Of a stretch of 64,000 nt of DNA, positions 21,801 through 45,280 are shown piece by piece (within the stretch, counting starts at the first letter, position 1; every line of letters starts with the position of its first letter). Below the pieces are notes generated by a model. The model ran no database searches and was not told the DNA's origin. It was given only the letters and a program-made list of their open reading frames with translations. Origin of the DNA: Carcharhinus longimanus. Taxonomy: Eukaryota. The DNA lies in assembly GCA_030264375.1 (NCBI GenBank), contig JASCQW010000154.1:4182691-4246690 (forward strand). The letters run 5' to 3'. A program made the position numbers and the translations under genes.

Positions 21801-24800
21801 TGGATTTATAAATTAAAAGGTATATCTGATAAACAAGGGCTTCATATTATAAATGCTATACCCGGGCTTATTTGAAATCATTATATTTTCAGTAATAGAG
21901 AATTTGAATTTAAAATATTGGTTCGTTTTACCTTTGCTAATCACAATGCCCGGTTATTTAATGCATTAGAGTTAACGTATTAATTGTACATGACAGTCTT
22001 ACACAAAGTTCAATTGCAGCCTATATATTGATGTACATTAAACTTGTTAAATTATGTGAAAAATAAATGCTCAGTTGCATTTACAATTAATCACAGGTTT
22101 GTTGACCTAAAAGGTTACGTGTTTCTAATCAAATGCAACATAGCGGCTGAATGTGTGTGCGTTTTATACATTGTGCTGGTGATCATTAATTTGTCTTTTT
22201 GTCTTCGGGCGAAAAGCGGAAACAGGCATTTTGGACGTGTTAATATGTCGCAATAATTTCCTGAAATTGAAGTTGGGGTCGAGCATTCGCAAAACCAGAT
22301 CGTATATTTCAACTAAACAGTTCAAAATACTTTTAGATGCAATTTCTCATCAAGGTGCATTTCCCATTCAAGTTACTATAGTGAGTATTTTTGAGGGTTT
22401 TCATTAAACCATTTCTAGTTCTGTTTGCATTTGTCTTTAAAACTAGTAAACTTACTGAACTAAAATAAGGTCGGCTGCTGCCTTCTGAGCATTTTCGTAA
22501 ACCAACGTCGTGTTTCTTTGCAACTTCTTAACAATTATACATTTTTCGGTCTGGAATTAATTAACAAATGTATGACCGGATGTCTGTGAGAAATAAAAGG
22601 TATTTCCTAAAAGTGTTACAGCCATTTGCGAAAACAACATGGATTGCGTCACAAAGAGATCGCTGAAAGCTCAGATTTACCTTTGGAATTTCTAAATGTC
22701 GCTGGCAAGAATTGAAAATGCAGAAAATTCTAGATTTATTTGCAAAATTACACATTCTGTTTATCAAAACTATCAAAGCGATCCTTTTGGTAAGGTTGTA
22801 ATTTAGCACGGCCTGGCGCGCTTCCTTTTTGCATCAGAATGTTCTTCTGGCAAATGTAACTGCGCAACGCATAATCTAAATAAACTTTGGTTCAAAAAAT
22901 AACTTGAACCAACAGTTTGCTGTTTTATTCTTATCGATCACAGCACAGTATTTTACTTGGAACAGACTCTAATGTTCATGTTAGTGGTCCGTTTATATCC
23001 AAAGGAATGGCAGCAACTGCAAAGCCCTGAAGTCCTCGCAGTCCTTTTTCTCATTCAGATACAGCAGACCAAGTTATGACCTCATTAGCTCAAAGTTTTG
23101 CTTTATTCCCCCTCATTAATTTTAGAACTTATCTTAAAACATCCATCTTATCATCCCATCGCTTGGGCAGCGAGTACTTACTGCACTAGCCAGAGGACTT
23201 TCTGTTCCTTCCTGAGACCAAACCGTTGTCGGGGCCGCGGCGCTCCGTCTGATTGTTAACCTTGCCTTTCAAGTTCAACTGCAAGGTCATAGCTGGACAC
23301 AAAGGAATGGCTAGCACGAGCTGCAAGCACTCCTCAACTTAATTACTTTCAATGCAATTGAACTTGGATTTCTGCCCTCCTCCCCCAGTCCCACAACTCC
23401 CCTCCCCCCACTAGAAAATGAGATTGCAAGTCAGAAGCAGAATGCCACTTCTGGCCTCGTTGTTCTGGCCTTTCCTTCTTCGGGTAATTTTCTTACTCCT
23501 GACTAATGGGAAATTTTACGTTCGGGTGCGCGTAGAAATCCGATAGAAAGTAAAGCCTCAATTCGCCGTCGGCGCACTTGAACTTGAGTTACGCCTGCCA
23601 TTTCCGAACACTCACGAGGAGTATTATTGTTTTGCGCCGAGGATTAGAACTAATCCCGCTAAGTATGTGTTAATCGCCTGGATGTAGTTTTTACTTTCGT
23701 AATGTTTTAATAAAAAATGCAGCGCTAAACAGTGAACTCAGAAAGCTATTTTGTGGTTGGCTCTTTTGCGTCATGTGATGGTTACAAAGATTTGAAATTA
23801 CTTTTGTGATTTCGGGCTGTTTATTGCCATGCTTGAGTTAGATCCCCTCACACACCAGAATATTTTCAAAAGTGACCTTTTCACAATTCCACTGAAGTCG
23901 AAACAACCTATTAAAATTTCAAAAGGACGCGTGATAGCTTCACTGGCCGGGTGCATTATAAATAAGATATTGGAGTTTGCTGTGAGAAGTGTTAACAAAA
24001 CATTTCCTAAATATGGATTGTGTAATTGATTTGATGGTCACTTCTCTCATGTTTGCCTGTTGCTTCCTATGTGTTAAGCTGTTTTGTCATAGCCAGGTGC
24101 AAAGTCAAACATGGAACGTAGAAAATATTAATGTTCTACTGAATAGCTCCATGATAAATTCCTAATTCTTTGCATGAAAACATTTTATTTATTTTCTTTC
24201 AGTCCATAATACCCACGCATATTTTCAGAAAGACACGCTAGCCCGGTTTTTGCAGAGCTCAGCGCTAACACAAGAATCTAACATAAGTGCATAAAATTTT
24301 TAAATAACTTGTAAAAAGGAGCGTTATGCAAATGGCGCACATAGGCGCTAAAACGCGTTTGCTTATCGGAAAGTTAAGTATATAATTTCCCAAATTAGAA
24401 TTCAATAACTATTTGCAGCTTTTACCTGCAATTTATTTTATGATAAACTTCTGTTCACTAGAGTACTTGTGTGGCGGTTGTGTCCAGAAGTCAAAGCCTA
24501 TGATACTATACATGATTGAGGAAATCTTTGACCCTATATATAGTAGGACATGTACCATTATTTACATACCTTACTGTATATAGGTAATATATCGCATAAC
24601 TATGTTTTAAAAAGAATGGTGAATGGCTTAAAACATGCTGAGATTACTTTTAGTATTTAATTGCCTCATTTGAAACCTTTAAAGCGGAAAAGCTGCTTTC
24701 ACATATTTAAAAATAATAATGCTGCCAATAATACTGGAGGGTCGTGTATCCAGCGTAATGTATAAAACTCATATGGTTAAGTGAAGGTTACTGATGCATA

Positions 24801-26174
24801 TTTATGCGGAATTAAACAATTTGAAGCCCCCTTTCTCCATCGAGTCAGCATATTCAGTTCTTTGACCGCACCGCTGAGTGAACTTAGTTCTCTACAAAGA
24901 AATAGTTTTGGGTTGATATTTTTATTTTGTACAAAATCTGAGCTGAATAGAAGACATTAAAGGTGATGTNNNNNNNNNNATTCTTCCCTGTGCGGCATGT
25001 GCGCATTCACAAATGAGCTCAGTAAATTCTCTGAACATTTTAATGAAAATATCCTTACAAGAAGTTAAGTAGTTTGTGCATGGTCAGTAATGGAAAATCA
25101 ATATTTTATCACAAGGCTTTTAAAATCAACGCCTAGTTGATGCACAACCAGCAACCGGACAGTCATTTCTGCTTGTGACATAGTTAATGTTGTAGTAGGG
25201 AAGCCAAACTTGGCCTCTACGCTGTTGATACCAGTACAGAACCCGGTTACAGTCAGTTATATGACGGTACGCAACAACAGCTTCCCGGTTGCTTGTGTGC
25301 AGTTTCTTCAGTCTGTCGTGGCCTATTGGTGGAGCACATCTCACTGTACTTACATCTCACTGTCCTCGTGATGATTACTTACTCAACTGGAAACATTCCT
25401 GGTGTTAGATAACTCAAACACATTTTGCATTAACATCATCTTGCTGAATTGTTCTAAACTTCCTTTAGATTTACTGCAACAAGCATGTGTAAGCGCGGAT
25501 TTCCCATCGTGAGAAAAATTATAGTTTGTGCTCAAGAGAAGCATAATCAGGATGTTACATCTCAGGGATTTGAATTAAATATAATGGTCGCAAACATTTC
25601 TACTCCTTCCCGGTCGCTTATACATTTCTCAAAAGTATCTTCAAAGGCACTTCAGATGTTTCTCAACGGCTCTAAATTTGCTTCGTGTAGTCATAGTGAC
25701 TTTTTTTATTTTTTAAATTTCCGATTTGCTAAACTTTGGACTATCCGTGCTATTTTTGCGACGTAAATATTTGATCTAATAGTGACACCGATTCCACAAG
25801 CAACAGCAGCTGCAAGTAATTGTACCGAATTGTGTAATGTAACGCCCGATGATATTTGTGTGTCAGTCCGGCTGGCTTTGTGTTTGTGTCTGCATGTATG
25901 TGTGTGTCCGCCTGTACATGTGCATACAGGCCTGTGTGTGTCGGGGAAATTACCTCGGCACTGGTTCTTCAGATAATTGTAAGATAATATTTTTAATTAA
26001 CTGAACAAAGCATTATGTGGGAAGCGCTGTAGACAAACAGTTATTTGTTTTCTTAATCGCGTTTTAAATTTCCTTTATTTTGCATTATTTCTGCACGAGC
26101 TTTGTACAAATTCATCCGACATGTTTAAACAAAGACTGACCATGTAGGCAGCAGTACTCCTGTTATGGAATGAT

Positions 26175-26193
26175 TAGCCAGGAGATGGCGCAC
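26175..26193 (+). promoter_or_regulatory. Candidate CTCF site
   Basis: TAGCCAGGAGATGGCGCAC is close to the CTCF core CCASYAGRKGGCRS; ~1.8 kb 3' of the HoxB13 stop. Confidence 0.55.
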
Positions 26194-26294
26194 TTGTTCT
26201 ACTCATGATAACTGCCAGATCACATCACCGAAAACCGTTCGATTATTCATGAGCAGCTAGACGTCATGATCATTGGCGAATACGCACGTGACTG

Positions 26295-26316
26295 TCAAGG
26301 TCAAGGTCAAAGGCTA
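26295..26316 (+). promoter_or_regulatory. Perfect DR0 nuclear receptor element with TCA extension
   Basis: TCAAGGTCAAGGTCA followed by A-AGGCTA. Confidence 0.6.
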
Positions 26317-27516
26317 ATCAATACGATTTGAACTAAGAATCCAAAGGTGGTAGTAGGTTTTCGCAAATACTCAGTTACAAAGTCATCTTCACTCCACTAA
26401 ATCCATACAGCCTAAGAAGCACAATCCAAACACATCCAACACGTTGCACAAGCAAGCACTTTCTGTGTCCCTATATCAATAAACGTGCAAAAGTAATTCT
26501 TTAACATTGTGCCACCAAACTGATAGTTCATGATGAAGTAGAGTGGCAGCGTTTTCTAGATGGAGACAGGAAAACCTTTTGTCAACTAAACACTTCTTTG
26601 ATTGAATTTCAAGTTCAGTAACTTCTGTTTGAAATCCGAGAGGCTGATGGCATGAAAACCCGAATAAGTGGACTTGTCCGCATTTTCTTTCTTAAATTGA
26701 TGTCATGCTAGATTATGTGCACATAAATACAGAGAACCAAAAGGTTGGGGACGGGTGGGGTGGCGGGGGCGAGTGGGGGAGCCTGTCTGGAGAGAGTTTG
26801 CAGCAAAATGTTTAATGGTTTTAAATTGTTGTATAAACCAGACACTACTTAAAGTGTGAAATCCAGGAAGGATGAAGTTATTTGCGTGATATTGTCCGGC
26901 TTCAGAGAGTATATTTTCCCAGTATGTTTTCTTTCATTCATTCACTTCCTCCTGTTCAATAAGCAGCAAGTTATCGCGTGATATACACCCACTTAATCTC
27001 ATTTTGTTTCTCCGAGTAAATGTATTAACTTACTTTAAAGTCAAATGGAAAAGGTTTTCTGATTGCAAACGTAATTAATAGAGTCGGAGCTATATGCTTC
27101 CAGAGTTAGGATTTATCTCAACCTTAAATTTTCAACGCTCACTTTGTGATTAAATCATAATATTAAATTAGAAGTTAATCGTTGCTTGCAAGTGCAAAAT
27201 GGTTACCAGCATCGGTTTATCTTTTTTAAGTCAAGCTTGCATAGTTAACATTAATTTATATATTTTAGATGATAAAGCACTAAACGTTAAATACAATTTC
27301 ACCTTTACGCGAGTGCTGGTTGTCATCTCTTGCGGTTAATATCAGTAATATCATCAGGTCATCGGTTTCTCATATATTATATGAAATATGAAACATGTTC
27401 TATACCAAATAAGTCTATTATTACTATCAGTAAATGGACATTAAATGAATGCATGAGCATTCCCTGCTAAACACTATTGAACAAAATTAGTATAGTCGCA
27501 AAACATTTAATCCTTT

Positions 27517-27522
27517 TTTATT
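27517..27522 (-). terminator. Candidate HoxB13 polyadenylation signal AATAAA
   Basis: First AATAAA I noticed on the minus strand, ~440 nt after the stop. An alternative ATTAAA lies at 26811-26816. No transcript evidence. Confidence 0.3.
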
Positions 27523-27958
27523 ATTATTAATATTTTCCCTCAACCCGTTTTGCTTAAAAACAGCGTTTAGGCGGTTCTACTGCAGTCATGCCGAAAATCG
27601 ACAGTTTAATGCGTAACCCAAACAAAACATAAAAAATAGCTTCTACACCAGTCAGACATACTTTGCATATCTTCACTAAACAAAACTGATAATAAACAGT
27701 GATGTCGGTATGGTTACAGAGTCGTTATAATTAAATTTACATTCTGACCACGTATTTAGTCCATTTTAATGGTATCCCATAACAAATCCTCCATTACAGT
27801 ATTAAAAGAAGGAAGAGGACATGTTAGCATTCTGCAGACAGACTCCTTAAAAGAAGTGTGCAGTTAAACCCCGTCGGTCACAAACGTCTTTCGCATCTTT
27901 GTGATTAATTTCCGCGATTGAACAGTTTCAATTATCTTTTTTTAAAAGATAGTAATAA

Positions 27959-28206
27959 TTAGGGTGTGTTGGTTTTTACTTTCGCGATGACTTTCTTTTC
28001 CTTAACTCTCCTGTTCTGAAACCAGATGGTGATCTGCCGTTCGCTCAGGTTCGTAGCCGCCGAGATCTTCCTCCTCTTGTCTTTCGTGATGAATTTATTT
28101 GTTGCATATTCCCTCTCCAGTTCTTTCAGTTGGACTTTGGTGTAAGGAATCATTTTCTTCCTTCCGCGCCGAAAGGAGCTTCCATCCTGTTGGTGAACTG
28201 CAACAT
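27959..28206 (-). CDS. hoxb13: HoxB13 exon 2 (homeodomain; stop TAA at 27961-27959)
   Basis: Acceptor cacagcag|AT restores the frame (G+AT=Asp). Homeodomain [73 protein letters not shown] and the C-terminal AKVK..TP match HOXB13 rather than A13/C13/D13. Total CDS 918 nt. Confidence 0.95.
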
Positions 28207-28646
28207 CTGCTGTGTGTGACCGTACACACCGCGCCAAAAACACAACAGAAAAACACATCAGGGAAATGCAGCATTGGAAAAGAATGCAGAAATATTAATT
28301 AAACAACACGGTTATCGGCAACAATTTCAGTATCTAAAAGAGGTGTATTTAACTGAAAGGATGCTGCAAACGCCAGCAGCCTAACACTGCAACATGTGTG
28401 TAACATTCTAAGACGGAAAACAATGTAACAATAATGAAATTAACATTATATTCCTACTGAAAGCCTTGCACCGGAAACGAAAAGTAAAACTGTGCATTTT
28501 TGATCTTGTTCTAAATTACAGCATATTGCCAGAAATAAATTATTTGCAATCAGTTGCATGGGTTCAAAGTGTTTCCAATATACTTATTTAATCGGAGTTT
28601 GCAATTATAGGGAGTTTGGAATTATAGGGAGGAATTCATCTGTTAC
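28207..28646 (-). other. HoxB13 intron (440 bp, GT-AG)
   Basis: Canonical GT/AG ends that join the two exons in frame. Confidence 0.9.
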
Positions 28647-29316
28647 CTGCCAGTGTGGATTTCCAGAGATGTCCCGACTGTGCCTGCTCCTTAGAACAGC
28701 ACATCTGGCTATTCCACCCATTAAGGGCCCAGGGCTGGTAGCCTTCCATAGGTAACAAGGCTTCATGCCTCGGCTCCCCTGCGCCACTGATAGTTTGGAC
28801 TACGGAAACGTCCAGATAACTTGGCATTGGTTGGTAGGCACTCGCATAGCCGTGGTAGAAAGCGAATTCCTTCGGCCGGCCTGGGTATTCATCAGTGGGG
28901 ACAGGACTGTCCATATACTTGTCTCCTGGGTAACTAGACAGGGGGGCAGGCTGGGTACAAGGCTTGATTGAACTTCGACCCATTCGACAGGAGTAGTAGC
29001 CGCTGCCGAAATATCCATACGGTAGAGGGGCAGCGGTGGAGGCCTGTGGCATTGGACATGGGGTGCATTGCTTGCCAGGTTCCACTACCCCAGAGCCGTC
29101 GACTGTCGAGTAGCCAGAGCCGTGAACCAAAGGTGATGGATGAGCCCCGAGTGCAGAATGAGCCATCAAATTCCTGCACTGATTTGCAGAGAAATTGCCA
29201 GCACCTACAAATCCTTCCATTACCCCGTTATTCTTACTAATCTCATCCGAGTTGCTTTCATACAGGAACATCACACTGTCGACCCAGCGAGGTTTCAGAA
29301 GCAGTGACACTGTCAT
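28647..29316 (-). CDS. hoxb13: HoxB13 exon 1 (670 nt, 223 codons + 1 nt)
   Basis: [14 protein letters not shown]...MFLYE carries Hox13 motifs [39 protein letters not shown] and HLWKS. It ends at donor GCAG|GTAACA (GT at 28646-28645), phase 1. Confidence 0.95.
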
Positions 29317-29339
29317 ATCACGTTCAGCATTGGGTCTAT

Positions 29340-29470
29340 AGTTTCTTTTAAGAGACGCAGAACTGAGAGCGTTACCGAATTTCTCCCAGCTATCTGCACT
29401 GACGCATAAACCCGGGTTAAAAAAACACGCCCGCCGATTGGCTGCTCACGAATCACGTGTTATGCAAACA
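29340..29470 (-). promoter_or_regulatory. HoxB13 proximal promoter
   Basis: On the minus strand: E-box CACGTG (29454-29459), AGCCAATC box (~29436-29443), GGCGGGCG, a T-run/TTAA, and TTTATGCGTCA, all within ~150 bp of the ATG. Confidence 0.6.
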
Positions 29471-32400
29471 CTGATAATAAACCTTCCTGCAGAATTGGCA
29501 GAAAAGAAAGGTTCATTGCGAAATAGAAATTATTAAAGGCACGCGTTAAAATGTCCAATTGTTGCAACTGTAGAAAGTAAGGGGTTTGCAATGGACACTG
29601 AACACTCTGCACAGCGTCAGCTCAAACAAAACAATGTCACGTTTTAACACATGAACCAAATCAAAGTAATTGCAGCATCTGGTTGCGTTCGTCGATCAGG
29701 GAGTTTCTTCGCCAAGTCCTTTGCATTAGACAGAGTTATGCACGGATATTTTAAAAAGTTGCTTCCAATTGTCAGGAAAATCGAATGTGAAACCTGAAGG
29801 GAAGTGGGTTGCAGCCACCAGTAATACTTGTGTTTTTTAAAGCAGATTTGTTGGCTGGCATTTTACAGGCAGGTCAGTAGTTGTATTTTGCAATTGCTAT
29901 AAGAATGGTTGGTTAATTATTATCTGTCCGGGATACCAAACCTAAACAATTATGAGAAGGTATTTCTTTAAAAAAGCATTGAAAGTTAAAATCACATTAA
30001 CCAACTCTTCATTCTATACTTGGAACCTATTCTTTCAGACGATACGTGAGCATGTGTGGAAACATCTAACAAAAATAGCATCACCTTCCATTTAATGTAC
30101 AACACGTCAATAAACCACACACACATAGGTTGGCACACCTTCATAAACCTCTTTGAACAACATTTTGTCTATTCTGTCACACGTCTTGGATATTTGGAGT
30201 CAAATAAAATAAATAATATTACATGATAAATTCGAGTCAAAACCCTCCTAAAGAGTTAACGTTAACTGTAGGTTATCCACATATCAAATATATCTAATAG
30301 CCTAAATCGAAATGGCTTTGCCACATGGCGCTCTGCTAAGAATTAACAATTCTTATGCGATTTGTCAGTTATGATCTATCGCAGTACTGAGAAAATGTGT
30401 ATTCTTCAGTGTGGAATTCTATTATCATTACCGCGTACTCTTTTTACCTCGGATAATACCGCGCAATTCCCCATACATTTACTAAAAATCAATTTCCCTT
30501 ATTAAAGTCTTAGTAATTGACAAAGATTTATATCGGGGTTTGATATACCACAACAGGAATTTGCCTCACGTTTGCGGTCGCTCTTATTGTGAGCGTCTTA
30601 TTGGTAATTATTTACCCAAACATCGTAAAGATTTATTCAGGTATTATTCTCTGGTTTTATTTTCAAATTGTGCATTTTGTTTCACAATAGAACTGTCCAA
30701 AGCACAGCCGCATTCCCCTTTCTCAAACAATCCCCTAATGCTAAATATTTTCCTAGGTTCATTTTTATTTGGTGCCGAATGATTTGAAACTCGCATGTTT
30801 CTGAAATTTCTTAGTTTTTAAATAACTCTAATTCAGATTCCAAGTTCAACAGGACTGAAGTGTAGACATAGATGGCTCTGCTTTCTGTATCAGGCTGCAG
30901 AACAGTGTTTCAACTGCATGTGTGAGGCAGGAGTGCGATTTGTTATATTAAACGTGCTTTATAGACACAAGCAGCTATTATTGTTATTTGCAAATTGTGG
31001 GCGAAGCTACCACTTAAAAGTGGTTTGATACGGTTTGAATGCAAGCCCACGTGAACATAAAGTTCCATATTAATTAAGAAATGCCCTGCGATTGACGCTC
31101 ATAAATCTCTTCCTGATTTCAAAAGCTCCAACATTGTGTTATGTACTAGTCGACCCAAACAAGATATCGCATTCCGAGAGACAAGATCGATATGTTTTTG
31201 TTAATTCCTCTTTTAATGAGCACCGTGGCAATAACATGTTGAGAGTGATGTGGCGACATGGGAAGTGCAGTGAAGACTGATCCTTGCTCATTTGTAAATT
31301 CCCAGAATTATTATCAACCTTGAAAGTATAACAAACTAAACTTTCTTTTTAAACTTTTTAAAGAACAAAGTGTTAATTTGGGCGTAAACTGAAAATTAAC
31401 TTCTGCAAATAAAAACAGCTGCTTTATCAACGGCCATTTGCTGCAGTTGGTGGCGCCGGCATTGCTATAAAACCGATGAAAACTTCGAATAGAAAACATT
31501 GGTCAGAAAGTTAGTACTAATGTTACACAAAGCGAACTGGTCAATCAAGCGATTCATCTCAAAATATTATTTTTATCAGTAGGATTCATCGACGGACTAA
31601 TAAATTATAGATCACCAAGCGATGGGATTTAAATTTCAAATGCCATTAAGATAGAATCCAAAGAGCCTGGGAAATGGTTAGGCGCTATAGAGATGCAAGT
31701 CCGTTCCCATGTTCCATCTAAAGCCGCCAGGAGACAAACGCTTAAGCGGTATGTCACAATTCCAACGTATTTGAACAACATTTGACAACAAATATCAGAT
31801 CTTTAGTCATTTGTCCCAATCATAATCAGTCTATCAAATGAACTCCCCATCAAAATAATTCAAATGAAAGTGAACGTGTGCGAAGAACCATCTCTGTAGC
31901 ACAATAAATCACTTCAGGGAAGAAAGGAGCACAAAACGCCAAACATATTTACAAATAAACAATACATATCGGAAACACTAAGCCTAGCGAAATTCAGATT
32001 TCCTATAATAATTTTCATTTGGTCCAAGCTACCCTCTTTAGATGGTAAGCTATTAACAACACCTTTTTCTACCGATCCCTCTTTCTGTTTATGAAAACGC
32101 AAGTGAAAAGATTATTTTTACTGCCTACTTAATTGTGCGAACAATGTTTTAAAAGTATTAAACAATACACAAGTGATGTGTTAACGTTTTTATGTGCGAC
32201 TAATAGCAGATGTCTGTTTTCCAATATTACACCAAAATTTCACAATAAGGCGGGGTGATAGGAAATTTAGAAACCACATCTAAACATTTCTATTAGCAAT
32301 TAAATATTTGTCAGTCATCATATACCATGGAACAATATTAATATTTGTTTAAAGAGCAGTTAATTGTCGTAGAGTATAACTTACAAATAAAAATAAATGT

Positions 32401-32667
32401 TAGCTAACCAGGCTTCCTATCAATTTGAAATTTGATTTTTCTTTAAATGCCTATAACCATTAGTTGCTTATTTGCATTTAACGCTTCTGATGTGAAGAGA
32501 GCAGCTTTTCAATTTTTATCAAATCGCTTGAGCCTGGGTTTTGAGTAAAGTCTTGGTACAGAAAAGCTCTGGGTCGGTGTTCGAGGGAGGGGAAGATGTG
32601 CCGAGGACGAGACACAAGCAATTAAGGAAGAGTCAGCCTTTTTTACATACGAGTTAGACACGGCTGA

Positions 32668-32691
32668 AGGCCAAGGTCAAGGTGAAAGTTA
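32668..32691 (+). promoter_or_regulatory. Four tandem zero-spaced nuclear receptor half-sites
   Basis: AGGCCA AGGTCA AGGTGA AAGTTA. Confidence 0.45.
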
Positions 32692-35600
32692 AGAGTCTAG
32701 CCGCTCAGAAAGCTGTCATTCAAGTGCTTTTCCTTNNNNNNNNNNNNNNNNNNNNNNNNNNNNNNNNNNNNNNNNNCTGCTTCCTTTATTCGTTGAGAAA
32801 AGCATTCGGAAGCTAATACTCCTTAAGCAACGCAGTTCACAAGACGGTGTGAGACATATTAATTTAAATAAAAAAAAACTGGTTTCGAAGAGATTCCAAG
32901 TAATATCACAGAACTTTTGTAGCTGACTTTAGTAGATCAACAACTGTTGGCTAAATAATGAGATACCCACATAAAAGTTCCTTTTGCACGTGTTTTCCTA
33001 TCAAAAACTGACATCAAATTTATTCACATATGGTATCACTTTAGTATATTGTAATTATACCTTTATTTTAACCTCCAATAACCTAACAAAATATGTATAT
33101 TATGATCAAGCACAACTGTATGAAATGCCATTCAATGTGGGATTGCATGTATCTGGACCCAGTGATAACAAAATGTCGGGAAAAAATGGTCAGTCACTAC
33201 TCGAGATCAGTAAAGAGTTTTAATGAACCTTCATTTATTTACATTTACTGTTGTGTACAAAGCTGTGTTTTGTACACACATTTAATTTTTAAAAGCCGCA
33301 GAGATATACAAAAGCTACAGCCGCAGTACAAACACACTGGTTGCTCCCCGTATGGTCACTGGGCCTTGATTTGTTTAGAGGTGTTGGATCTCGTGCTGTG
33401 TCCACACTAAAGTTATATAGCAGCTCGTTTCTGTCTCCCCGAGGTATCTGAATATTGCAAACTATACGAGGGAGTAGAGTTAATTTAAATTCAAATTATT
33501 GAAATGTTACCATGCCACTACAATCGCTGGCAAAATATCTTAGTTTATTTGCTTCGAAATATTACATATACACAAAAATTCAGGTTTAGTTTCAATGGTG
33601 GTTATTTATATGAAATAGTTTCCACCAAAGGGCGGCGCATAGATTCAATATTATTCATGAATCAAAGAAATGACAACACGGTTCGACATGGTGAGAAGTT
33701 ATTTCCAATAGCTTGCTTCTTTTGTCTATTAAAATATTATTTAAGTCTTTTTAATTCGAAAAAATGCATACTTTCACAAGCCGAGCTGATAATGTTACAT
33801 TATTTGCATGAAAATGGTTTTATATTTTCCTCCAAGACTATTTTCTTGCGAGACTTGCATGGTGCTTTTTGTGAGGATTGGTGGAATGAAGGGCCCATAA
33901 GCATTCGAAGAAAGACTACGGCGAAATTACGAAGAATGAGAGGCTCCAGTGTCCGAGAGAGAGAAAAACAAACACAGGAAAGGGAAGAGTCATCCTAACC
34001 ATGCTCCGGCAGCTCGCATGCGTTTGCTTTGCGCGTCTTCTGCAGGATTTGCCCTTACTCTCGCCGGCGCGTTAATCAGTGATCCGGACAAAGACTTGTG
34101 GATGTTTACGGCGTAATAGTAATTTCAACCCCACTCTCAGCCCTACTCCGTTAAATATTTATTTCTCACCAGAAAACGTGCATAATTTAAGATATTGTGT
34201 TAAAAGCGTTCGTTTTTTTTAAAGGAAATACATCCGGAATTGGTAAATTGTTACTTTGGAAATGGAATTATACGCCTCCGTTGCCATTCCCTGCGAGTAG
34301 TCGTTTTAGGTCACTTTACAACGAATGTGACGCATACTTTCACATTTAGACCATCGGTAAGTATGGAAGTGAGTATATCCGAGGTAGAGTAGTCCTCCTC
34401 CCTCTGGGTAGTTGTAAGATGACCCAACTGAAAGGTATCTCAGTGTGGGGAGCACTTCCGGGACCTCTCCACGCTGTGAAAATGCAAAAAATATGAATAT
34501 TAGACAAAATACTTCAAAAGTTATTTAAAGTTAATTAACCTCACAAACTCGAAAATAATTTTAGCTGCACTTAAATATATTCCTTTCACATTGTTCCGTG
34601 TGTTTTCTGCATTTACAATAATTGGGTCCCCATCAGCATCATTAATAAAAGCTGAATAACCCAAAAAGACGAATCTCCCTTTTACCATTGCGGTGTTTAG
34701 ACTTTTCTCTTGCAGTAATAACCCCGTCTGCATTGGTATTTCCGTGTTATCTATAAAAGAAAGTCCATAAATAAAACAATTAAGAATTACTGGTTACTTT
34801 TTTTTAAAATACTGCACTCATATATTTTATCCACCAGTTTTTGGTATTGTGAACATACGGTATTGTATTTAAAATAAAAACAAAAAAATGCCAGAAAAAC
34901 TCAGCAGGTCAGACAGCATCTTTGAAGAGAGAAAATAGAGTTAACGTTTCGAGTCCGTATCTTCAGAGCATTGTATGTAACATTTTTTCTATGGGGTTGA
35001 ATACATTCAATTAAAGTAAGCAATGAGGTAGAAATATCGTCAACCTCGCGAAAGAGACCTGGGAGAGAATTGACCATTTTGCGGATATACATTTGGGATA
35101 TATTAACCATCCGAAAACTCACGCGATCCATCTCTCTAATGGATACGTCGCTCAAGGACTTTACTAATCAATTTACTCTTTCTTCTGAGTTGGTGCAGAA
35201 TAGCATGCTTATACATGATGTTATTTCTTTGACAATTAAATCGCTTCTGTGTGAATTCGCTTCTCGAATTCTCACCATTAACGACTAATGCGGTCAGTCT
35301 CGCAAATCGCTCGAACATCGATTAGTGGCTATTTTCCCTCTCCACAGTTGCTGGCAGACCTATTGAGTTTTTCCAGCATTTTATTTCTTTGTTGTCGTAG
35401 CTATTCCTGATTGAAAATGGCAAACGCTGACTTCAAATCGCATAAAAATATCTTTTTGTTTCTATAAACTACCTCTGTATAGTCGAATTTGCGTACGAAA
35501 TATTTACGATATTTACACGGGATACACGGACCAAATATACTGATACACAATTCTACACGTGCAAAGGAAAATGAATAAGTATAAAACAAGAAAGAGTAAC

Positions 35601-35899
35601 AATGCTGTAAATACAAAACTAAAATAAATTGCTGATTACGGACAATGAGCCACTCAGCATCAGAAAACAAGAAAAAAGTCAACTTTTCTGCTGTGGGCTG
35701 TGGGTCAGAATGGTGCAATTAAATTTTCCTTTTCTTTTAATTTTGCTATTCAGATCTAAATACCTGTTGAAAGTTTGTGTGATATAATTAATATACAATT
35801 CTGGTGTTTGTCTATTAACAAGGGTATTTTTGATTTAATGACAAATAATAGCCGCATATCATGAATAACCAGGAAAGATTAACGCCAAATGATTTTCCA

Positions 35900-36540
35900 T
35901 CAGCTGGGAAAATAAGGCAGCTATGAGGAGATTGTTTTTCTGTCAGTGAATCATAAATCTTTGGAACTTTCTTCCTCAAAAGTCAGTGAAAGCAGAGTCT
36001 CCAAACGATTTGAAGGAGGAGTTGGATAGATTCCTGTGAAGAAGGAGTTGGATAGATTCCTGGTAAGCAAATGGGTGAAGGTTATCAGAGGTAGGCGGGA
36101 AAGTGATGTTGACCCTACATTCAGATTAACCATAATCTTATTGAATAGCAGAACAGGCCTGAGGAACTGAGTGGCTTCATATGTTGTATTGAAGGGGAGG
36201 GAGAGAACAGGGTGAGAGTTATATGTTATTGTTTTTATATGGTTTTTTTCAACTTCATGTTACTCCAAAATGAATGCATCGCTTCCTTGCTCCTCAGCCA
36301 AGGTATTCACTTATTGTTTTCCAACAATTCAAAGTATCTGTCAGCAAAAAATAATTCTCATTTGGGCTTTAATTGGGGAATAACTTGGGCAGTAACATGT
36401 GGCTGCCATTTGAAGAGCTGTATGGACAGGATCACTGACCGATTGCAGGATGGTGAAATTAAGCACAGTAACTCTTAATCGACCAGCGTTGTCACGATCG
36501 GCTAAATGACCTCCTTCTGTGTCGTAAATTTTCGATGATT
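35900..36540 (+). mobile_element. Two CR1 3' tail fragments
   Basis: TTTTTCTGTCAGTGA..GGAGTTGGATAGATT..TCTTATTGAATAGCAGAACAGGCC and GGCTAAATGACCTCCTTCTGTG tails. Confidence 0.7.
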
Positions 36541-36764
36541 TTTGATAAGGTAAATGTGTCGTCCTTAAACAGTCCACAAGTGACATGTTCCCACTTTATT
36601 CGCACTGTAGAAAATGTCCAATATTTCGGGATTATGTCATCCAATTTTACATTAACTGGAGTTAGAATTAAAACAGAAAATGATTTTCATCTACCCAATC
36701 GCATCAAGGGGTGAATATTGGAATGACGCTCATTAACACACGAATGATTCTTTTTAGCATTTGA

Positions 36765-37040
36765 GAAACAGAGAGGTTACAGCAAAAAGCTGTCATGGAA
36801 TATAAGTAGAACGACACAGAGAGAGAATGAAAGAGACAGATTGAAATAGCAACGGAGACGGAGGGAGAGAGAGTCATTCAGACAGGGGTGGCGGTGGGGA
36901 TTGCACAGAGATCGAGGCAGAAAGCGACAGAAACAGTCAAACAGTGACAGATAATCAGACAAACGGAGAGGTGGGAGCAGAGAAAGGAAATCAGAGACAG
37001 AAAGATAGAAATACAAACACAGAAGGATAGAGAGAAAAAA
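36765..37040. repeat. GA-rich low-complexity tract
   Basis: Degenerate gaga/gaca repeats. Confidence 0.8.
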
Positions 37041-37159
37041 AGATAAATAAAGCCTGGAATGAACCGTTCCAGCTTAATTATTCTCGAATGAGTAAATACG
37101 TCATGTTGTGCAATGATCCAATCAAACCGTAAACAGGTTCAGGAGCAGGCAACGCTTCC

Positions 37160-37174
37160 TGACCTTGAACTTGA
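37160..37174 (-). promoter_or_regulatory. DR0 element with TCA extension
   Basis: Minus strand reads TCA AGTTCA AGGTCA. Confidence 0.5.
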
Positions 37175-39189
37175 CACCATTAGGCCGCGGCTTTGTCGCA
37201 CTCTCGTTGGACTACGGGATATATAGCGAAATTAGAATGAATGAATATTTGAATATGTTGATACGAAATATGCGTAATATACGCACTTAATTCACTAAAA
37301 TGAGATTAAAGCAATAGATCAGAGATGCATTTAAGGATATATTTCCCACAAAATGAACTTGGAGTTTTGAAACCGGACTTCTGTCACAGACTGTTAAAGT
37401 ATTGAATCAAACATCAAAGAAATCGTCACATTGAAGGCCCTTTCCTGAACGCACATTCAAAGGTTTTACAATTCCTATTTATTTAAGTTCTGCTTGTATG
37501 TGTTTTCTTCACAGATGCGGTCTTGCAATGGGCAGGGCTTACAATTTATGTTTGTTTTTTATCATGCTGGATCCCCTTATTTTAAAACAAAACCTGTTTG
37601 TTATCTTGAGTCTGGAAGTTTGCCTTGTTGTCGGGTAAGTGAAAAATGTATCCCTGTTGTCCCACAAATAACGTTATCTCCTCAATCTATATACACTTAT
37701 AGTTCTTCCAATCTATACTCTTATAGACTGTAGGGCTCATTTCTTGTAGCACACTGACTGTTTATAAGATATTTCGTCAGATCATCTCCCAAATGGTTTA
37801 TCACAGTTTTAAACAAATTTTCTCGAATCTGACCATGTAGAAAGGGTATATTTAGGAATCTGAACCTGAAGCTTTGATTCCTTTGGTCTTTAGTACAAAC
37901 TCATACTGTTCCGATATTGAACTTTAATGCCCCAGTCTGTCCGAGTATTAGGCTGCAAGCGTGGATCGTTTGATGTGAACAAAATCACCCTGCTGCTGTG
38001 TTTCTATAAGCTTTTACTTAAGGACATGCAATTATATACACGAGGAGAAAACACATTCAATTAAATAATTTAAAAGTTGCAGCAACAACACAAAACTTTG
38101 GCCTGTAGTTATTGTATATAAAAATATATGTACTTATAAATTAGATGGCCTTGAAGTATTTCTGCAACTATCCGTATATAAAAGATTCACTTTAGTAATA
38201 GTGCAATATTGACAGGTAGAAGTGCTTAGCGACGTGATGATCATGCTATGAATTCGCACAAGGTATTCATTAACAAATACAAAAATTTAAAACTGCAGCA
38301 TGGATGTTTACGTGTGCACAATAATCGTTTAGATTATATGGTACTGGACCAACTGATTACTATAAAATTCCTGTTAAATCAATCCACATTTTTGTCTGGA
38401 TCCGGACATTGTTATAACCACCCGCTGCCTTAAATTAAATAACAGATTTTTTATGATGCTCTGTGCAAACGTTTGGAATTTCGAGTATGGGACTGATTTA
38501 TTTATTACTGTATATCCTGCTCATCTGGGAAGTGATATCCTGTAGGTATTGTTTATGTGGTGGAATTCATTTCACTTACATTACCTTTCATTTGTATTTT
38601 AACCGCTCAGAGCATGCCTTGATGCGAATATCCGCCAGTATTATCGCTGATTTTGTTTAAAGATGAAAACAATCTTGGCGTTGGGTGCAAAGTTGCTTTG
38701 GGGTTTATTGTTTTCTAATAGAACAATCCTTGTAGACAATTAAAACATTTTGGTACAAATTTTTGAATCTATTCCGAGAGTGTGAATTTTATTTTCGCTG
38801 TTAAAAAGAAATGTAGGGGTTTTAGTGCAGACCAAATGGAAATAAAAATGTCGCTTAAAAATAAAACACGGTTGCTATCATGCCAGTAAAAGACTATTCT
38901 GTCCTGACTAAGTTTAATACTTTTGTCTGGACACATTCGCCTTTAACAAACGCATTTATATGCTGATCGATTTATTACCGTTCCACAAAGTAGTTTCCAA
39001 ATGGCAGATTTGGAAATTATTTTAAAAGTATTACTTATTCTTGATCTTAAATAATAGAGCAATGGATTTATCAGTTAGGCAATCTGCAATTGCAGAGTCT
39101 TGGTATTAGGTTTAATTCGTCAATTTTACAGCAGAAAATATTGAATGTTAGCCAGAATTTATGTAGCATCGTATCTCATCTGACAGAAA

Positions 39190-39770
39190 CGCTGTAAGGG
39201 CTTGACAGAGTGGATAGAGATGCCATCACTAGTGGGGGAGTCTAGAACAAGGGGACATAGCTGCAAGATAAAGTTTAAAGTTAAAGTTTATATATTAGTG
39301 TCACAAGTAGGCTCACAATAAAATTACTGTGAAAATCCCCTAGTCGTCACACTCCGGCGCCTGTTCAGGTACACTGAGGGAGAATTTAGCGTGGCTAATG
39401 CATCTAACCAGCACGTCTTTCATATTGTGGGAGGAGCACCCGGAGGAAACCCACATAGTCACGGGGAGAATGTGCAGACTCCACGCAGATATAGAGGATC
39501 CGACATTTAAAGCCGAGGTGCATAGAAATTTCTTCTTGCAGTGGGTGGTGAATCTATGGAATTCTCTACCCATCGGGTGGTGGGGGCTGGACCATTAGAA
39601 GTATTTAAAATGGAGGTGGATAAATATTTGATAGGTCAAGGAGCAGAAGACTATGGGGAAATGGCACAGAAAATGAGTTGAGGCCGGGCGTAGATCAGCC
39701 ATAGTCGTATTGAATGGTTGGTCAGGCTTAAGCCGGATTGCCTCTCCCTGCTTCTATTTTTCGTGTGTTG
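39190..39770 (+). mobile_element. CR1 3' fragment interrupted by a SINE
   Basis: GGGGAGTCTAGAACAAGGGGACATAG before the insertion; RNFFLQWVVNLWNSLP and the tail after it. Confidence 0.8.
39270..39490 (-). mobile_element. HE1/V-SINE-type SINE inserted in CR1
   Basis: Reverse complement of the 8079-8350 element: GAGCACCCGGAGGAAACCCAC..ACGGGGAGAATGTGCAGACTCC. Confidence 0.85.
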
Positions 39771-39839
39771 TGTGTTCACATCTAATGGGGTGTCTGGTAG
39801 AAGTGTTGGCGCTCTTATCTGTGTTGTAAAGATATGTTC

Positions 39840-40040
39840 TTTTATTCTTTCATGGGATGTGAGCATCACTGGTTAGGTCAACATTTATATTGTCCATGAT
39901 AATTGCCCTTGAGAAGGTGGTGCTGAGTAGCCTTTTTGAACAGCTGGAGTTCATGCGATGTAGGTACACCCACAGTGCTGTTAGGAAGGGAGTTCCAGGA
40001 TTTTGAGCCAGCCACAGTGCAGGAACACATTTCGAAACTT
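39840..40040 (-). mobile_element. LINE 3' tail
   Basis: TAATTGCCCTTGAGAAGGTGGTG..GGAAGGGAGTTCCAGGATTTTG, same family as 14180-14400 and 46490-46685. Confidence 0.75.
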
Positions 40041-42619
40041 CGATAAATGACAGCACTTCCTTATTTTAATAATGAATGTTGAAAAACAGAATGGTTACAG
40101 CATAGAAGGGGGCCGTTCCGCTGCGCTGGATCTCGAAGGCGCAATTTTCTCCGTGCCACTCCCCGGACTTTCCTCATAGGCCCTAGTTTCAGAATGTCCA
40201 TTTACACTGAGGCCCCAAAATATTAATATTGACACGAAAGAAGACAATAATAGAAAATTTGCAATTACTTCAGGAAACTGCTGTACCAAATTTTCCGTAG
40301 CAGAAACCTCTGCAAAATTGGGTATTTAAATTTGGACAAATGTCCTTCTAATATACCGGTTAACATCAAATATAGTCGGTCAATAATATTCCACTGCATT
40401 TCTTATATCTTTGGTTCAATGCATTGCCTTTTACATAAAAGGAAGTCATCTTAACATATCTTGCACCTTTTGTGCATCCTGCTTTTAACTTTTTCTCAGT
40501 CTTACCGAGGAACTATAGACCGTGTGCACCATTTAAGATGTGGAAATAATTTTAGTGATAAGAATTACTCTTGTGTCGACTAAGACCTGTACAGCGGGCT
40601 GATAGGATTTTAACGTAGCTCTTGAGGTCCATGTGCAATGGTTGATAATTTCAAAATTAATTTATAAGGATCATGTTATTCCACCAGCTAACAAGTACGG
40701 ATAGCGATCTGAAACAGTGGTACATTTGACAATGTAGGTTAAAAAGCTCTGCTCTCGGTCGCAATGCGATTGCCCCACTTTAACACCCTTCAAAATCAAC
40801 GCTGCATTTTTAAAAAATGCAGCTAGCATTGTTGTTTCAGCTTTAGGTTTTCGAACAATGACAGTAGTAAATGCTTTGATAACGAAATGTAGCAAATAAA
40901 AATTGACCGTAATGTTACCCAGTGTCAAACTAATGTAGTCATTTATTATCCATAACCTGATACACGTTTACATAAATTAATGTATCAGAGTCCCAATATA
41001 TTAAAATCTATCATTGTAATGTACAGCAGTGTTTTCTTCTTTGAAAGAGACACACAGACTCGAAACGTTAACCCTGTTTCTCTCTCCACGGATATTGCCA
41101 GACCTGCTGAGCTTATCCGGCATTTTCTGTTTTCATTATCGTTATCTTCCGTTTAGGAAGATATGAAAAATCATAAGTTGGTGATCTTTAATTCGTTGCA
41201 TCAACCAAGGTACACGATTTAAATACTTTAACTGAGGGCAATTGGTTACCATCTGATGTAATATGAAGGTATTAAAAAGTTAAAAACATTCAAGCCCTCA
41301 AGCCTATTCCACCATTCAATAAGATTATAGTTGCTTTATGTCTTAACTCCACCCATTCTCGTTGGCTCTTTATCCTTTTATACCCTGATCTAGATTTCGG
41401 ATCTAAAATAAATTGAGTTAGCTGCGTTTTATTTTGAGTGCTATAGGGTATTTTTTTAATTTCCACTGCTCTTTGCGAGAAGAATTATTTCTTAACTTCT
41501 TTCCAGGATGCCCTGGCTTTGATTACAGTGTGATGTCTCCAACAGAAGACTCCCTAACCAGGGGAAAAGGGTCTTTTTTTTATTTTTGCTTTGAAGATTG
41601 TCAGCAAGATTTCTTCTCAACACTATACTGTTTCATCATAGCGCACATATTTTCAGTTAATTCTACAAACTATGATTTCAACTCTCCTGAGCTAATGCCA
41701 CAACTGGCGAATATCTGGACTGCTTCATCCAGTCAGCGGCGGAATGGTTAACCCAACCCGCCCCAGACATGAATCAAGCCGCTTTGGTTGATAGTGACTG
41801 TTCTCCTAACATCGGATATAGTTACAACTGCACATTGGGAGCAATGGTTACCTGATCTGCATATCGTTCTTCTATTCTCTATATCAGAACGTCTGCTATA
41901 TCTTTCACATTTCCAGTGATCCAAAATAGCAACATTGTTGTCAACTTTTCTGCAGATGTTCAGTCACTGGGTATATTTAAACCTGAGCTTTTCGGCCACG
42001 AAGGAAATCCGGGGTTATGGAGATAGTGTGAAATGTGGATCTGATGTAAGGTATTATCCATAAGGTGTTGAATCGCGGAGAATGGCCCACACATCCTTCT
42101 ATTTCTTATGTTATAATTCTAAAATTCATGAACACGTAATAAATTGCTTTAGCTCCTCTGCGCAGTCTCATTGCAAATGCGTTCAATTCTCCTTTCCGTT
42201 ATTTTGGTGAAATAGTGAGTACCTTTATTTTTTGCTGTGTGTTTGCACACTTCGCAATCAACTGGGAGGTCACACGGCCTTCACTTGCCGTAGGGGTGAA
42301 ATTTGGGTTCAATTTCTCCAAAGAATAGTCATTTCAGTTTTATCAGCCCTGCCCCTTCACTTTTAGGCCCCGGTGTCAATATGGAATCAGATCGCTGGCC
42401 TGGTTCCCTCTTCATGGAGAAACTATTTACATATATATTGTCCATTTGTATCAAACAAAAACGAACACATAGCCAAAGGATGTAATAACATGACTCCAAA
42501 AACACGTCACAATTTCGGACAAATTCAGAGTCAGAATCTCATTGTCTACCAAGCAAGAATATATTTACAATACCACTGTAGAGCTGATACAGAGCGATGG
42601 CCCTTCACATTCTTGTTAC

Positions 42620-43161
42620 AATTATGGCCAACATTAATCTTGGATTCTGGCACCACCTGACCCATTGGGATGGGACTTCTTGTGAGAAGTATTTCCTTGG
42701 GAGCTAGCTCTAGCACTAACGCTTTACGCAAGGTCAAAGTCCCTGCAAAGCTGTGTATCCACACTAAACATCAGTACCTTCCACTTACGCCTCACAGAGC
42801 TCAGCCCCACCTCCGACATGGGCAGAGCATCCCTGGCTGTTGCGTGTCAATTCTACATAGAAAACTGATGTAAATCTAATTCATTCTGAATCGTGTTAAC
42901 TGACTCCGAATTTCTGCTGCAACTCTCGGATGGATGTAATGCCAACTGCACAAGTCATCTCCACATTCTTCATTAAGTGACTCGCTGTAGGCATTTACGG
43001 TATTTTCTCAATCCAATCCAGCTCCCACCTGTCCTTTAACCAGACAGGTTCCACCTAATGCGTTGCGGTCTATTAATCATGATGATTATGTTGCGCTTTC
43101 TTATAGCATTGCCCATAAAATCTAAATGTTGCAGAGAATCTCGCCTGGTGTTTTTGCGCAG
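42620..43161 (-). pseudogene. Tentative HoxB14 split-homeobox relic
   Basis: 43161-43029 translates LRKNTRRDSLQHLDFMGNAIRK..IRWNLSG* and ends GACAG|GT. After cag at ~42659-42657 comes TGG TGC CAG AAT CCA AGA (WCQNPR, vs Hox14 WFQNQR). Alignment by eye, needs indels. Confidence 0.3.
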
Positions 43162-43864
43162 TTTGTCAACTCTCGAAACGAATTCCTTTCTGGAGTTCAT
43201 GCGGTTTGCATTACCCCTTTCAAAAGACAGATGGACTGTAGTAAAGGCGCGTCCAGTTCTATTGGAGATGAACGCGACATAAATCCTTACAGTTTTACAC
43301 TACACTGCGGGTTATCTTTAACCGTTAAAAACAAGTCAGCCGCTTCTCTGCTCAACTAAAAAGACAGAGGTGGGTGAGGCGGAGGGCGGGGGTGTATGGC
43401 CGAGACCGAGTTTGAATTCTTTAATTAAATTGCCAGAACCCGCTGAGTAATTCTCATTTCTGCTTCGCTTAATATTTTTGGGTGGTCTCTGTAGCGAATT
43501 ATAGAGGTGGACTTTGAGGAATTCCGACTCGAGCTAAGTTCAAGGCTCTGCCCCCCAAATCGCTGCATAGACACCAGGGTAATTCCCCCCTCCCCCGCGC
43601 CACCCCTTTGTTCAGCTTCATTTTTTTTTTGGAAATTGGCCATGTTTACTTCACCTTCTGGCGATGGATTTACATCTATCACTGTGTCTACCAGCAAGCT
43701 GCGACCTGCACTGGCAAATCACCCGAAGCAAATCACACAAAGTCCCCCTTAGCAACCCCGAAATTTGAAAGTATAAAATATTGAGAGGGGACATACTGGT
43801 AAGTTGTTTCTTTGGTTGGATAGTCTGGTACGAGAGACTATCGTCAGTATAAGGAATCATTTAC

Positions 43865-44165
43865 TTAGAATCACAGTATCCCTATACTGCAAAAGGAGGC
43901 CAGTTGGCCCATCGAGCCTGCACCAACAGCAATCCCACCCATCCCCTATCCCCGTAACCTCACGTATTTACCCTGCTAATTCCCGTGACACGAAGAGTCA
44001 ATTTAGCACGGCCAATCCATCCAACCCGCACATCTTCGGACTGTGGAAGGAAACTGGATCACCCGGAGGAAACAGGCAAACATGCAAACTCCACGCGGTC
44101 GTCCAAGGCTGGAATTCAACCAGGGTCTCTGGCGCTGTGAGGCAAAGGTGCCACCATGCTGCCCG
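43865..44165 (-). mobile_element. HE1/V-SINE-type SINE
   Basis: ATTTAGCACGGCCAATCCATCCAACCCGCACATCTT..CTGGCGCTGTGAGGC..TGCCACCATGCTGCCC. Confidence 0.85.
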
Positions 44166-44759
44166 GACTTAGGACTGAGATAAGGAGCAATTTCTCCACT
44201 AGGGGACTGTGAATTTCTTGGCATTCTCTAACCTAGTAGGCTATAGATGCTTATTTCATGAGTACATTGAAGATTGGATGATTGACTAGTTGAGATCGAC
44301 TCTTCCAACTCATCAATATAAAAGCAAAGCTCTGCGGATGCTGGAAAGCTGAAATAAAAACAAACCAAAACAGGCTGGAAATACCCAGCAGCTCAGACAG
44401 CTTCTGTGGCGAGAAACAGGGCTAACGTTTCAGGTTGAGATAATCGCTGAGGCGCTCACTGGACACAATATTTGCTTCTTTACTTTACCCAGTCCCGTTC
44501 TCTTTGCCTGTTGTTTCATTAGACCTTTTGCAATTTAACTTCTCCATCCCTAGATCCTATAATGGACTCACGCTTTTGTTTTTCCTGCCTCCCCGCTCCG
44601 CCACTATCTTAGAAAAACCCTGACATTTTGATCTTTCTAAAGTTTTGATGAACACTCACCTTGACCTGAACTGTTAACTGCTTCATTCCACAGATGCTGC
44701 CTGGCCTGCTGAGTATTTCCAGCTTTTTCTGTTTTTGTTCTCCTGGTTCCTCTCCCACA

Positions 44760-45280
44760 TTCAGTAAACTTGAGGTCATCCAAAATGTTGCTCCCCACTT
44801 CTTAGCTCGTAGTGAATTGCGTTCCCCTCTCAACCCGTGTCCGCCTACCTGCATGGGCTCCCATTCAAGCAATGTCTTGATTTTAAAATTCTCCTCCTTG
44901 TTTTCCAATCCCCCCCTATTGGTACCGTTGCCTTCAACTGGGGAGGCCTTAATCTCTGGAATGCCCTCTCAAAACTTGTCTACTTCGCTTTCCCCCTGTC
45001 GAACATTCTTAAACTCTACCTGTTCGGCCAAGCTTTTTGTGATCTGACCTAAGTGAGATATTCTTTATAATTTTCCTGCCTTTGGGACATTGAATTACAT
45101 TGAAGGCATTATATAACTATAAGCTGTTGTTGATAGATTTGGGAGCATTAAAGGAATCGAGGGGCAGAGTGATAGGTCGGAAAAGTAGATTTCATATAGA
45201 AGTTTCTTCATGATCTTATTGAATGACTTAGCAGTCTCGAAAGGCCGAACGGTCTACTCCAGCTCTTAGTCCTCAAATTC
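44760..45280 (+). mobile_element. L2-like 3' tail followed by a CR1 tail
   Basis: KLEVIQN / LHGLPFKQCLDFKILLLVFQ (L2 C-terminus), ending AAGGCATTATATAA; then GATCTTATTGAATG..GGCCGAACGGTCTACTCC. Confidence 0.7.

Follow-up and report, generated by a model that had tools for sequence, protein, structure and literature searches.

In the mouse, deletion of Nr6a1 (GCNF) raises Hoxb13 more than 200-fold in tailbuds and leads to its induction without Gdf11 in vitro, by a mechanism that 'remains to be defined' (PMC9755267). Re-analysis of chromatin immunoprecipitation data placed putative Nr6a1 sites in all four Hox clusters (PMC9755267), and a review calls the directness of Nr6a1 action on posterior Hox genes 'currently unclear' (PMC10909835). 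The target of the receptor is described as either two directly repeated half-sites with zero spacing (DR0) or one extended half-site (PMC10909835, PMC12957460). In somites, peaks that an assay for transposase-accessible chromatin tied to late genes were enriched for NR6A1 motifs, and repression was predicted to be strongest for Hox10-13 (PMC10563765); Gdf11/Smad2 activates Hox10-13, and Smad-responsive elements occur in Hox loci (PMC11659552). The present work concerns such receptor motifs around the HoxB13 gene of the shark Carcharhinus longimanus, within C154:4182691-4246690 (the window, i.e., the whole stretch of 64,000 nucleotides), where HoxB13, on the minus strand, is the single Hox gene. 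Two groups of motifs, an upstream and a downstream module, recur at HoxA13 and HoxD13 and are very probably real, ancient nuclear-receptor elements.

Several described systems come close to this arrangement. The Oct4 (Pou5f1) promoter carries a GCNF/Nr6a1 DR0 that is likewise a zero-spaced AGGTCA repeat, at which a repressor competes with other receptors (PMC10909835, PMC4446430). However, that DR0 is a single proximal-promoter element, whereas the shark sites lie kilobases from the gene, on both sides, one set of them beside a CTCF-like site. RAR/RXR binding to the mouse 'Hoxb13 DR0' has been characterised, and the structure of its RXR complex has been solved (PDB 6XWH; PMC7515732). This element resembles the shark sites in being a DR0 at the same gene; a mouse RAR/RXR peak lies at a similar estimated 5' distance, and the 16-mer of the mouse DR0 matches shark positions 32666-32681 in 14 of 16 bases, the best match in the window (other DR0s there reach 13/16). 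It was published, though, as a biochemical RAR/RXR substrate, with no paralogs, Nr6a1 link or developmental role in the accessible text (PMC7515732). Posterior Hox CTCF sites, including mouse HoxB CBS10, share with the shark site a location 3' of Hox13, a posterior-type orientation and retention between clusters (PMC11573545, PMC10335938, PMC8559674). The accessible literature on these sites describes CTCF only (the term 'Nr6a1' occurs in neither PMC11573545 nor PMC10335938), whereas in the shark a TATTCATGA box and half-sites are conserved along with the CTCF-like site. Non-coding sequences shared between paralogous Hox clusters have also been kept since the genome duplications, and the present scan recovers several of them in the anterior and central clusters. 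Such sequences were reportedly surveyed by Matsunami in 2010, in a list that may include the upstream module. The main text of PMC3595034 contains 0 occurrences of Hoxa13 or Hoxb13, and HoxB13 elements are not mentioned in the accessible portions of that paper and of PMC4470032. A literature search, with most subscription papers lying outside it, returned in accessible text no paper that names DR0 modules common to Hox13 paralogs and none that ties the Hoxb13 DR0 to Nr6a1. DR0s, CTCF sites and paralogous Hox elements are each of a known kind; the search did not turn up a combination of them at every Hox13 gene.

Both modules are present at all three Hox13 genes of the assembly, which lie on C154, C132 and C32; the genes on C132 and C32 are called HoxA13 and HoxD13 on the basis of their proteins and the content of their clusters. 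The search of the assembly gave three Hox13 matches in all, none of them a HoxC13. HoxB13 itself was identified at 27959-29316 on the minus strand, so that 23269-26617 lies 3' of the gene and 32665-43548 lies 5' of it. A preliminary description of this DNA, which had reported DR0-type elements bracketing HoxB13, was correct on this point. The parts of the two modules at HoxB13 are as follows.

32638..32722, plus strand: upstream module, in antisense orientation to HoxB13 and 3.35 kb 5' of its ATG, from the HoxA13/HoxD13 comparison
26178-26309, plus strand: downstream module as a whole, 3' of HoxB13
26178..26201, plus strand: CTCF-like site pointing towards Hox13, with an equivalent in place and orientation 3' of HoxA13 and HoxD13
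26243..26272, plus strand: TATTCATGA box followed by a degenerate half-site, which is a perfect TCAAGGTCA in the HoxA13 and HoxD13 alignment
26295..26309, plus strand: perfect DR0, the second receptor site, 1.65 kb past the stop codon; the aligned position is TCAAGGTCA at HoxA13 and HoxD13

A scan of the three clusters gave near-matches to the motifs in similar positions about each Hox13 gene. The upstream module is centred on four tandem hexamers at 32668-32691. The four half-sites first described there do exist, although only one is perfect, two carrying one mismatch and one carrying two. An AGAC box at 32657 and a GTCT box at 32695 stand on either side of the half-sites, and both boxes, which we take to be Smad-type, also flank the core at HoxA13. 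The HoxA13 copy, located 3.20 kb 5' of its gene, shows 85% identity over 85 bases (E value 5.6e-17) and is the sole other genomic match to 32638-32722 (two matches counting the module itself). Among non-repeat non-coding matches between HoxB and HoxA in the region 5' of HoxB10, the upstream module stands alone. Its 20-base core is identical in 19 of 20 positions to a site 2.39 kb 5' of HoxD13, an agreement expected by chance within 10 kb with a probability of ~4e-7. A degenerate pattern of the core, built from these same three copies, matches the 2.68-Gb genome at exactly three places, each of them 5' of a different Hox13 gene, against 0 for the control. The orientation is the same at all three genes, antisense to each Hox13. 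A motif scan gave no CTCF-like site in the upstream module. The window contains seven N gaps, one of which (32736-32776) directly adjoins this module.

On the 3' side, the same elements follow each Hox13 gene in the same order: first a CTCF-like site, next TATTCATGA, then one half-site and finally a second half-site or DR0. The TATTCATGA box is presumably POU-like. The CTCF-like site at 26178..26201 points the other way from those within the HoxB and HoxD clusters. Mouse posterior Hox CTCF sites are described with such a reversed orientation relative to central-cluster sites (PMC10335938, PMC8559674), and the shark site is a candidate posterior boundary. At HoxA13 and HoxD13 both half-sites are perfect TCAAGGTCA, spaced 26 and 25 bases, and a gapped pattern has two matches genome-wide, precisely these two (control 0). 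HoxB13 has a decayed first half-site, while its second position is occupied by the perfect DR0 at 26295. Among 53 CTCF-like sites, drawn from 40 background loci and three cluster stretches, only three have TCAAGKTCA within 150 bases, and all three are the Hox13 3' sites. Plain alignment of the downstream module gives scores of 38 and 28, where the null reaches at most 27 (the HoxD13 copy lies at 40493768-40493860); these scores are modest, and the case therefore rests on order and orientation.

Both modules have the attributes of paralogous Hox non-coding elements, that is, the same place and orientation in several clusters, outside repeats. In the HoxA/HoxD comparison, these attributes were lacking for the sites outside the two modules. 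Since the modules are common to the A, B and D clusters, their presence is most simply explained by descent from the pre-duplication cluster; the argument draws on the duplication history of the Hox clusters, and the two modules most likely predate those duplications, which would place receptor input before them as well. The 'ancient cis-regulatory array' of the preliminary description is in this sense supported for the two modules shared with HoxA13 and HoxD13. The array is neither uniform nor specific to HoxB13: next to the two modules of deep common origin it comprises one perfect DR0 seen at HoxB13 only, scattered half-sites and two chance-like distal sites. Outside the modules, the sites are the following.

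37160..37174, minus strand: perfect DR0, 7.9 kb 5' of the ATG, HoxB13-specific
23269..23289, plus strand: two spaced extended half-sites, contributing to the aggregate excess, with no paralogous match
23573..23587, minus strand: DR0 with a degenerate second half; paralogous match not above the null
26609..26617, plus strand: single extended half-site TCAAGTTCA, from the motif scan
42729..43548, plus strand: two weak distal sites (42731 and 43537), not distinguishable from chance

A motif search recovered every motif that had been listed (26295, 32668, 37160 and five weaker places). The two perfect 15-mers, TCAAGGTCAAGGTCA at 26295-26309 (plus) and TCAAGTTCAAGGTCA at 37160-37174 (minus), lie 10.9 kb apart, one on each side of HoxB13. 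Exact matches to TCAAGKTCAAGKTCA number 76 in the 2.68-Gb genome (reversed control 93), and two of the 76 are in the window. For the window, two such sites give a Poisson P of ~1.6e-6; genome-wide, however, ~0.07 windows of this kind are expected, and the perfect pair by itself is therefore not overwhelming. Allowing up to two mismatches, TCAAGKTCAAGKTCA gives eight matches at six separate places, whereas 100 shuffled versions averaged 0.92 matches and never exceeded 3. The best paralog alignments of the DR0 at 37160 score 31 and 25 (null maximum 29), which is marginal at best.

Enrichment was measured against 40 loci of 10 kb, chosen arbitrarily (351,774 called bases in all), together with 517,594 bases of three Hox regions away from Hox13. 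The extended half-site YCAAGKTCA occurs at 12 places within 16 kb of HoxB13 versus 1.9 expected (~6-fold, P 8e-7; reversed control 2 versus 1.2), and still at 9, again versus 1.9, when the three DR0 modules are left out (P 1.6e-4). Corresponding counts are 7 for HoxA13 and 6 for HoxD13; within 6 kb they are 7, 4 and 4 for HoxB13, HoxA13 and HoxD13, with 0.76 expected. The excess over background proposed as a check in the preliminary description is thus real, except at 42731 and 43537, which look like chance and have neither the YCAAGKTCA form (none occurs between 38200 and 45316) nor a paralogous match. Generic RGKTSA DR0s are not significantly enriched within 16 kb of HoxB13 (15 versus 9.5 expected), nor are the DR1-DR5 spacings (observed/expected: DR1 10/8.8, DR2 5/8.9, DR5 8/8.0), and a classical retinoic-acid response element (RARE) profile, with DR1, DR2 or DR5 enriched at the locus, is absent from HoxB13. 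The motif was picked after being seen, and its form agrees with the published description of DR0 and extended half-sites. As had been stated, the sites are outside repeats: none of the nine tested positions falls in the BLAST-based mask. A repeat origin was rejected on this ground, together with the absence of tandem repeats there and the single genomic match of 26200-26400. CpG richness does not mark the sites, because the region from 22 to 44 kb is rich in CpG throughout (median 0.78 versus 0.26). The 74 other perfect DR0 sites of the genome form a candidate set for further Nr6a1 targets. Additional extended half-sites with no HoxB13 counterpart occur 3' of HoxA13 (C132:92522964-92539000) and around HoxD13; at HoxA13 they include one half-site in the intron and three that lie roughly +7.8 to +8.1 kb relative to the ATG.

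The sequence features expected of an Nr6a1/GCNF element are found together here: DR0 or TCA-extended half-site form, enrichment (42731 and 43537 apart), and the receptor gene in the genome, with a DNA-binding domain identical to PDB 5KRB at 70 of 72 residues. The DNA-binding exon of this gene lies ~200 kb from an NR5A-type gene (C148, ~20.08 and ~20.28 Mb). The two modules may well act as Nr6a1 repressor docks inherited from a single ancestral Hox cluster. In trunk-stage axial progenitors, Nr6a1 dimers would sit on DR0 and extended half-sites, recruit co-repressors and keep Hox13 off, so that all three Hox13 genes would be held silent until the trunk is finished. HoxB13 has the most and the best sites, and this would account for the Gdf11-independent de-repression of mouse Hoxb13 upon loss of Nr6a1. 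On the form of the motifs and the sensitivity of mouse Hoxb13 to Nr6a1 loss, we lean slightly towards Nr6a1-mediated repression as the main job of the modules. A broader proposal is offered only tentatively, and we hold it to be rather doubtful: the ancestral vertebrate Hox cluster may have carried a hard-wired trunk-to-tail switch around Hox13, with an upstream Nr6a1-versus-Smad input and a downstream CTCF-plus-Nr6a1 input, kept by all paralogs, to which HoxB13 added perfect DR0s that would account for its unique Gdf11-independent de-repression. If true, this would supply definite positions in the DNA at which evolution could alter the length of trunk and tail. PMC9755267 and PMC10909835 pose as questions whether the repression of posterior Hox genes by Nr6a1 is direct and what makes Hoxb13 uniquely sensitive, and the modules offer targets of a few bases at three genes. 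They may also point to a confound, since the mouse Hoxb9-Hoxb13 spacer deletion and the 500-base pieces of the CTCF cassette (PMC11573545) would remove and restore the receptor sites next to the final CTCF site, provided that the mouse keeps them.

Words of the upstream module occur in 20 of 24 listed sequencing runs, from eight organism labels and 11 studies, five of these rows possibly being the source itself. Of four runs compared over 23150-26750, three are close relatives (~95-99% alike) and one has no real cover. None of the 40 listed substitutions, out of 245 in this interval, falls inside the listed motifs; the other 205 lie outside the listed rows, and no site-level constraint is therefore claimed for it. 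A metagenome scan passed three of 76 candidate stretches, two being fish-like Hox13 contigs and one a spurious bacterial match; neither module was found in the fish-like contigs, which are short, with 1.37 kb of sequence on the upstream side and ~1.6 kb on the downstream side. In the mouse, a strong RAR/RXR peak is reported at mm9 chr11:96051451-96051951 (PMC4446430). With Hoxb9 at 96132823, a 74-kb spacer (PMC11573545) and an assumed gene length, it would lie roughly 4 kb 5' of Hoxb13; the mouse Hoxb13 DR0 is probably orthologous to the shark upstream module and presumably lies inside this peak. No RAR/RXR peaks near mouse Hoxa13, Hoxc13 or Hoxd13, or 3' of Hoxb13, were present among the rows listed, which were selected by guessed coordinate prefixes and are not evidence of absence (PMC4446430).

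A number of observations count against an ancient repressor role for the modules through Nr6a1. The Smad-type boxes are missing from the HoxD13 upstream copy, and the HoxD13 downstream score of 28 is barely above the null maximum and relies on shared architecture. A run holding the upstream module has no real contig over the downstream region, a gap that proves nothing, and the link to bony vertebrates consists of published mouse data. The published Hoxb13 DR0 stems from RAR/RXR work and not from Nr6a1 (PMC7515732), and the strong peak placed by estimated coordinates ~4 kb 5' of mouse Hoxb13 belongs to RAR/RXR (PMC4446430). As the preliminary description had rightly anticipated, other receptors can read such sites: DR0 is common to GCNF, COUP-TF, ESRRB, NR5A2 and RAR/RXR and does not name its reader (PMC4446430). 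Nr6a1 is a predicted binder here, and its timing of HoxB13 onset through the DR0 sites is plausible. In mouse gastruloids, moreover, removal of CBS8-10 from a re-inserted cassette did not raise Hoxb13 (PMC11573545). If the downstream module is CBS10, it is therefore not essential in gastruloids, though the upstream module was intact there.

Several of these points bear on which receptor reads the modules. RAR/RXR, COUP-TF or TR2/4 might be the main readers of real elements, in which case the modules would serve retinoid-linked or general repression instead of Nr6a1 timing. The characterised mouse site (PDB 6XWH) and the mm9 peak speak for this, as do the four tandem half-sites, which also provide longer-spaced composite repeats of the kind common at RAR sites (PMC4446430). 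Nevertheless, RAR/RXR binding to DR0 is non-cooperative and confers no independent RARE activity (PMC7515732), HoxB13 shows no enrichment of DR1, DR2 or DR5, and the perfect downstream half-sites of HoxA13 and HoxD13 stand 25-26 bases apart, each TCA-extended, so this explanation is considered unlikely. Monomeric NR5A or ERR, acting as activators of Hox13 in hindgut, cloaca and genital tissue, would likewise turn the sites into something other than timing elements. Extended half-sites of the TCAAGGTCA type are the NR5A2/ESRRB motif (PMC4446430), enrichment is strongest for them and not for generic DR0, NR5A genes are present in the shark genome, and wild-type mouse Hoxb13 begins in hindgut endoderm (PMC9755267). 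This activator role is nonetheless judged quite improbable, in that HoxB13 has two perfect double repeats and mouse genetics points to Nr6a1 repression (PMC9755267). In addition, seven of the 11 extended half-sites across the 23269-43548 span are AGTTCA-type. Half-sites of this type are read poorly by NR5A and ERR; the literature search found no paper source for a preference of Nr6a1 for AGTTCA.

It could also be argued that the CTCF site and general chromatin context alone matter, the receptor motifs being relics or bystanders. CTCF sites are indeed conserved between paralogous clusters (PMC10335938, PMC8559674) and suffice to insulate mouse Hoxb13 (PMC11573545). Yet the upstream module lacks a CTCF-like site while its receptor core is the sole part kept at all three paralogs, and neutral non-coding DNA would not be expected to remain 19/20 identical between clusters, which makes this view very doubtful. 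Chance clustering of a motif chosen after the fact fits the distal sites at 42731 and 43537, the lack of significant enrichment of generic DR0, and the small but non-negligible genome-wide expectation for a perfect pair. For the two modules it is already largely refuted by their shared orientation at all three paralogs and by reversed-motif controls that are flat at HoxB13, and as a general account we regard it as extremely improbable.

The gene at the centre of this arrangement was delimited by protein comparison.

28647..29316, minus strand: coding part of HoxB13 exon 1, with the ATG at 29316
27959..28209, minus strand: HoxB13 exon 2, with homeodomain and stop codon and with tandem acceptors at 28209 and 28206

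Exon 1 shares 94-96% identity with HoxB13 proteins of sharks, 84% with that of a ray and 83% with that of a chimaera. The exon 2 acceptor (28206-28212, minus) is a tandem CAG-CAG, which fits a one-residue isoform difference among database entries of other cartilaginous fishes. Residue 5 of the homeodomain is Met (28151-28153, minus), where 15 of 15 aligned Hox13 proteins have Arg, as do HoxA13 and HoxD13 of this same shark. Arg5 of the homeodomain is a minor-groove contact. The Met codon is a one-base change, and an assembly error and a real variant are both possible.

Within the window, retroelement-like open reading frame fragments or interspersed repeats occupy 4373-4852, 9550-9900, 12612-13073, 34870-36175, 39283-40027, 41055-41137 and 43866-45934, and Rfam gave no structured-RNA match. 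Unplaced homeoboxes occur on the small contigs C32666 and C16652. The nearest homeobox on the same contig is HoxB10-like, at a homeobox distance of 83 kb from HoxB13, and a mir-196 precursor lies near HoxB10 (L011:1429-1502). Farther along, C154:4040000-4125000 in the anterior and central clusters has many paralogous non-coding matches to C132 and C32, some of them with receptor half-sites.

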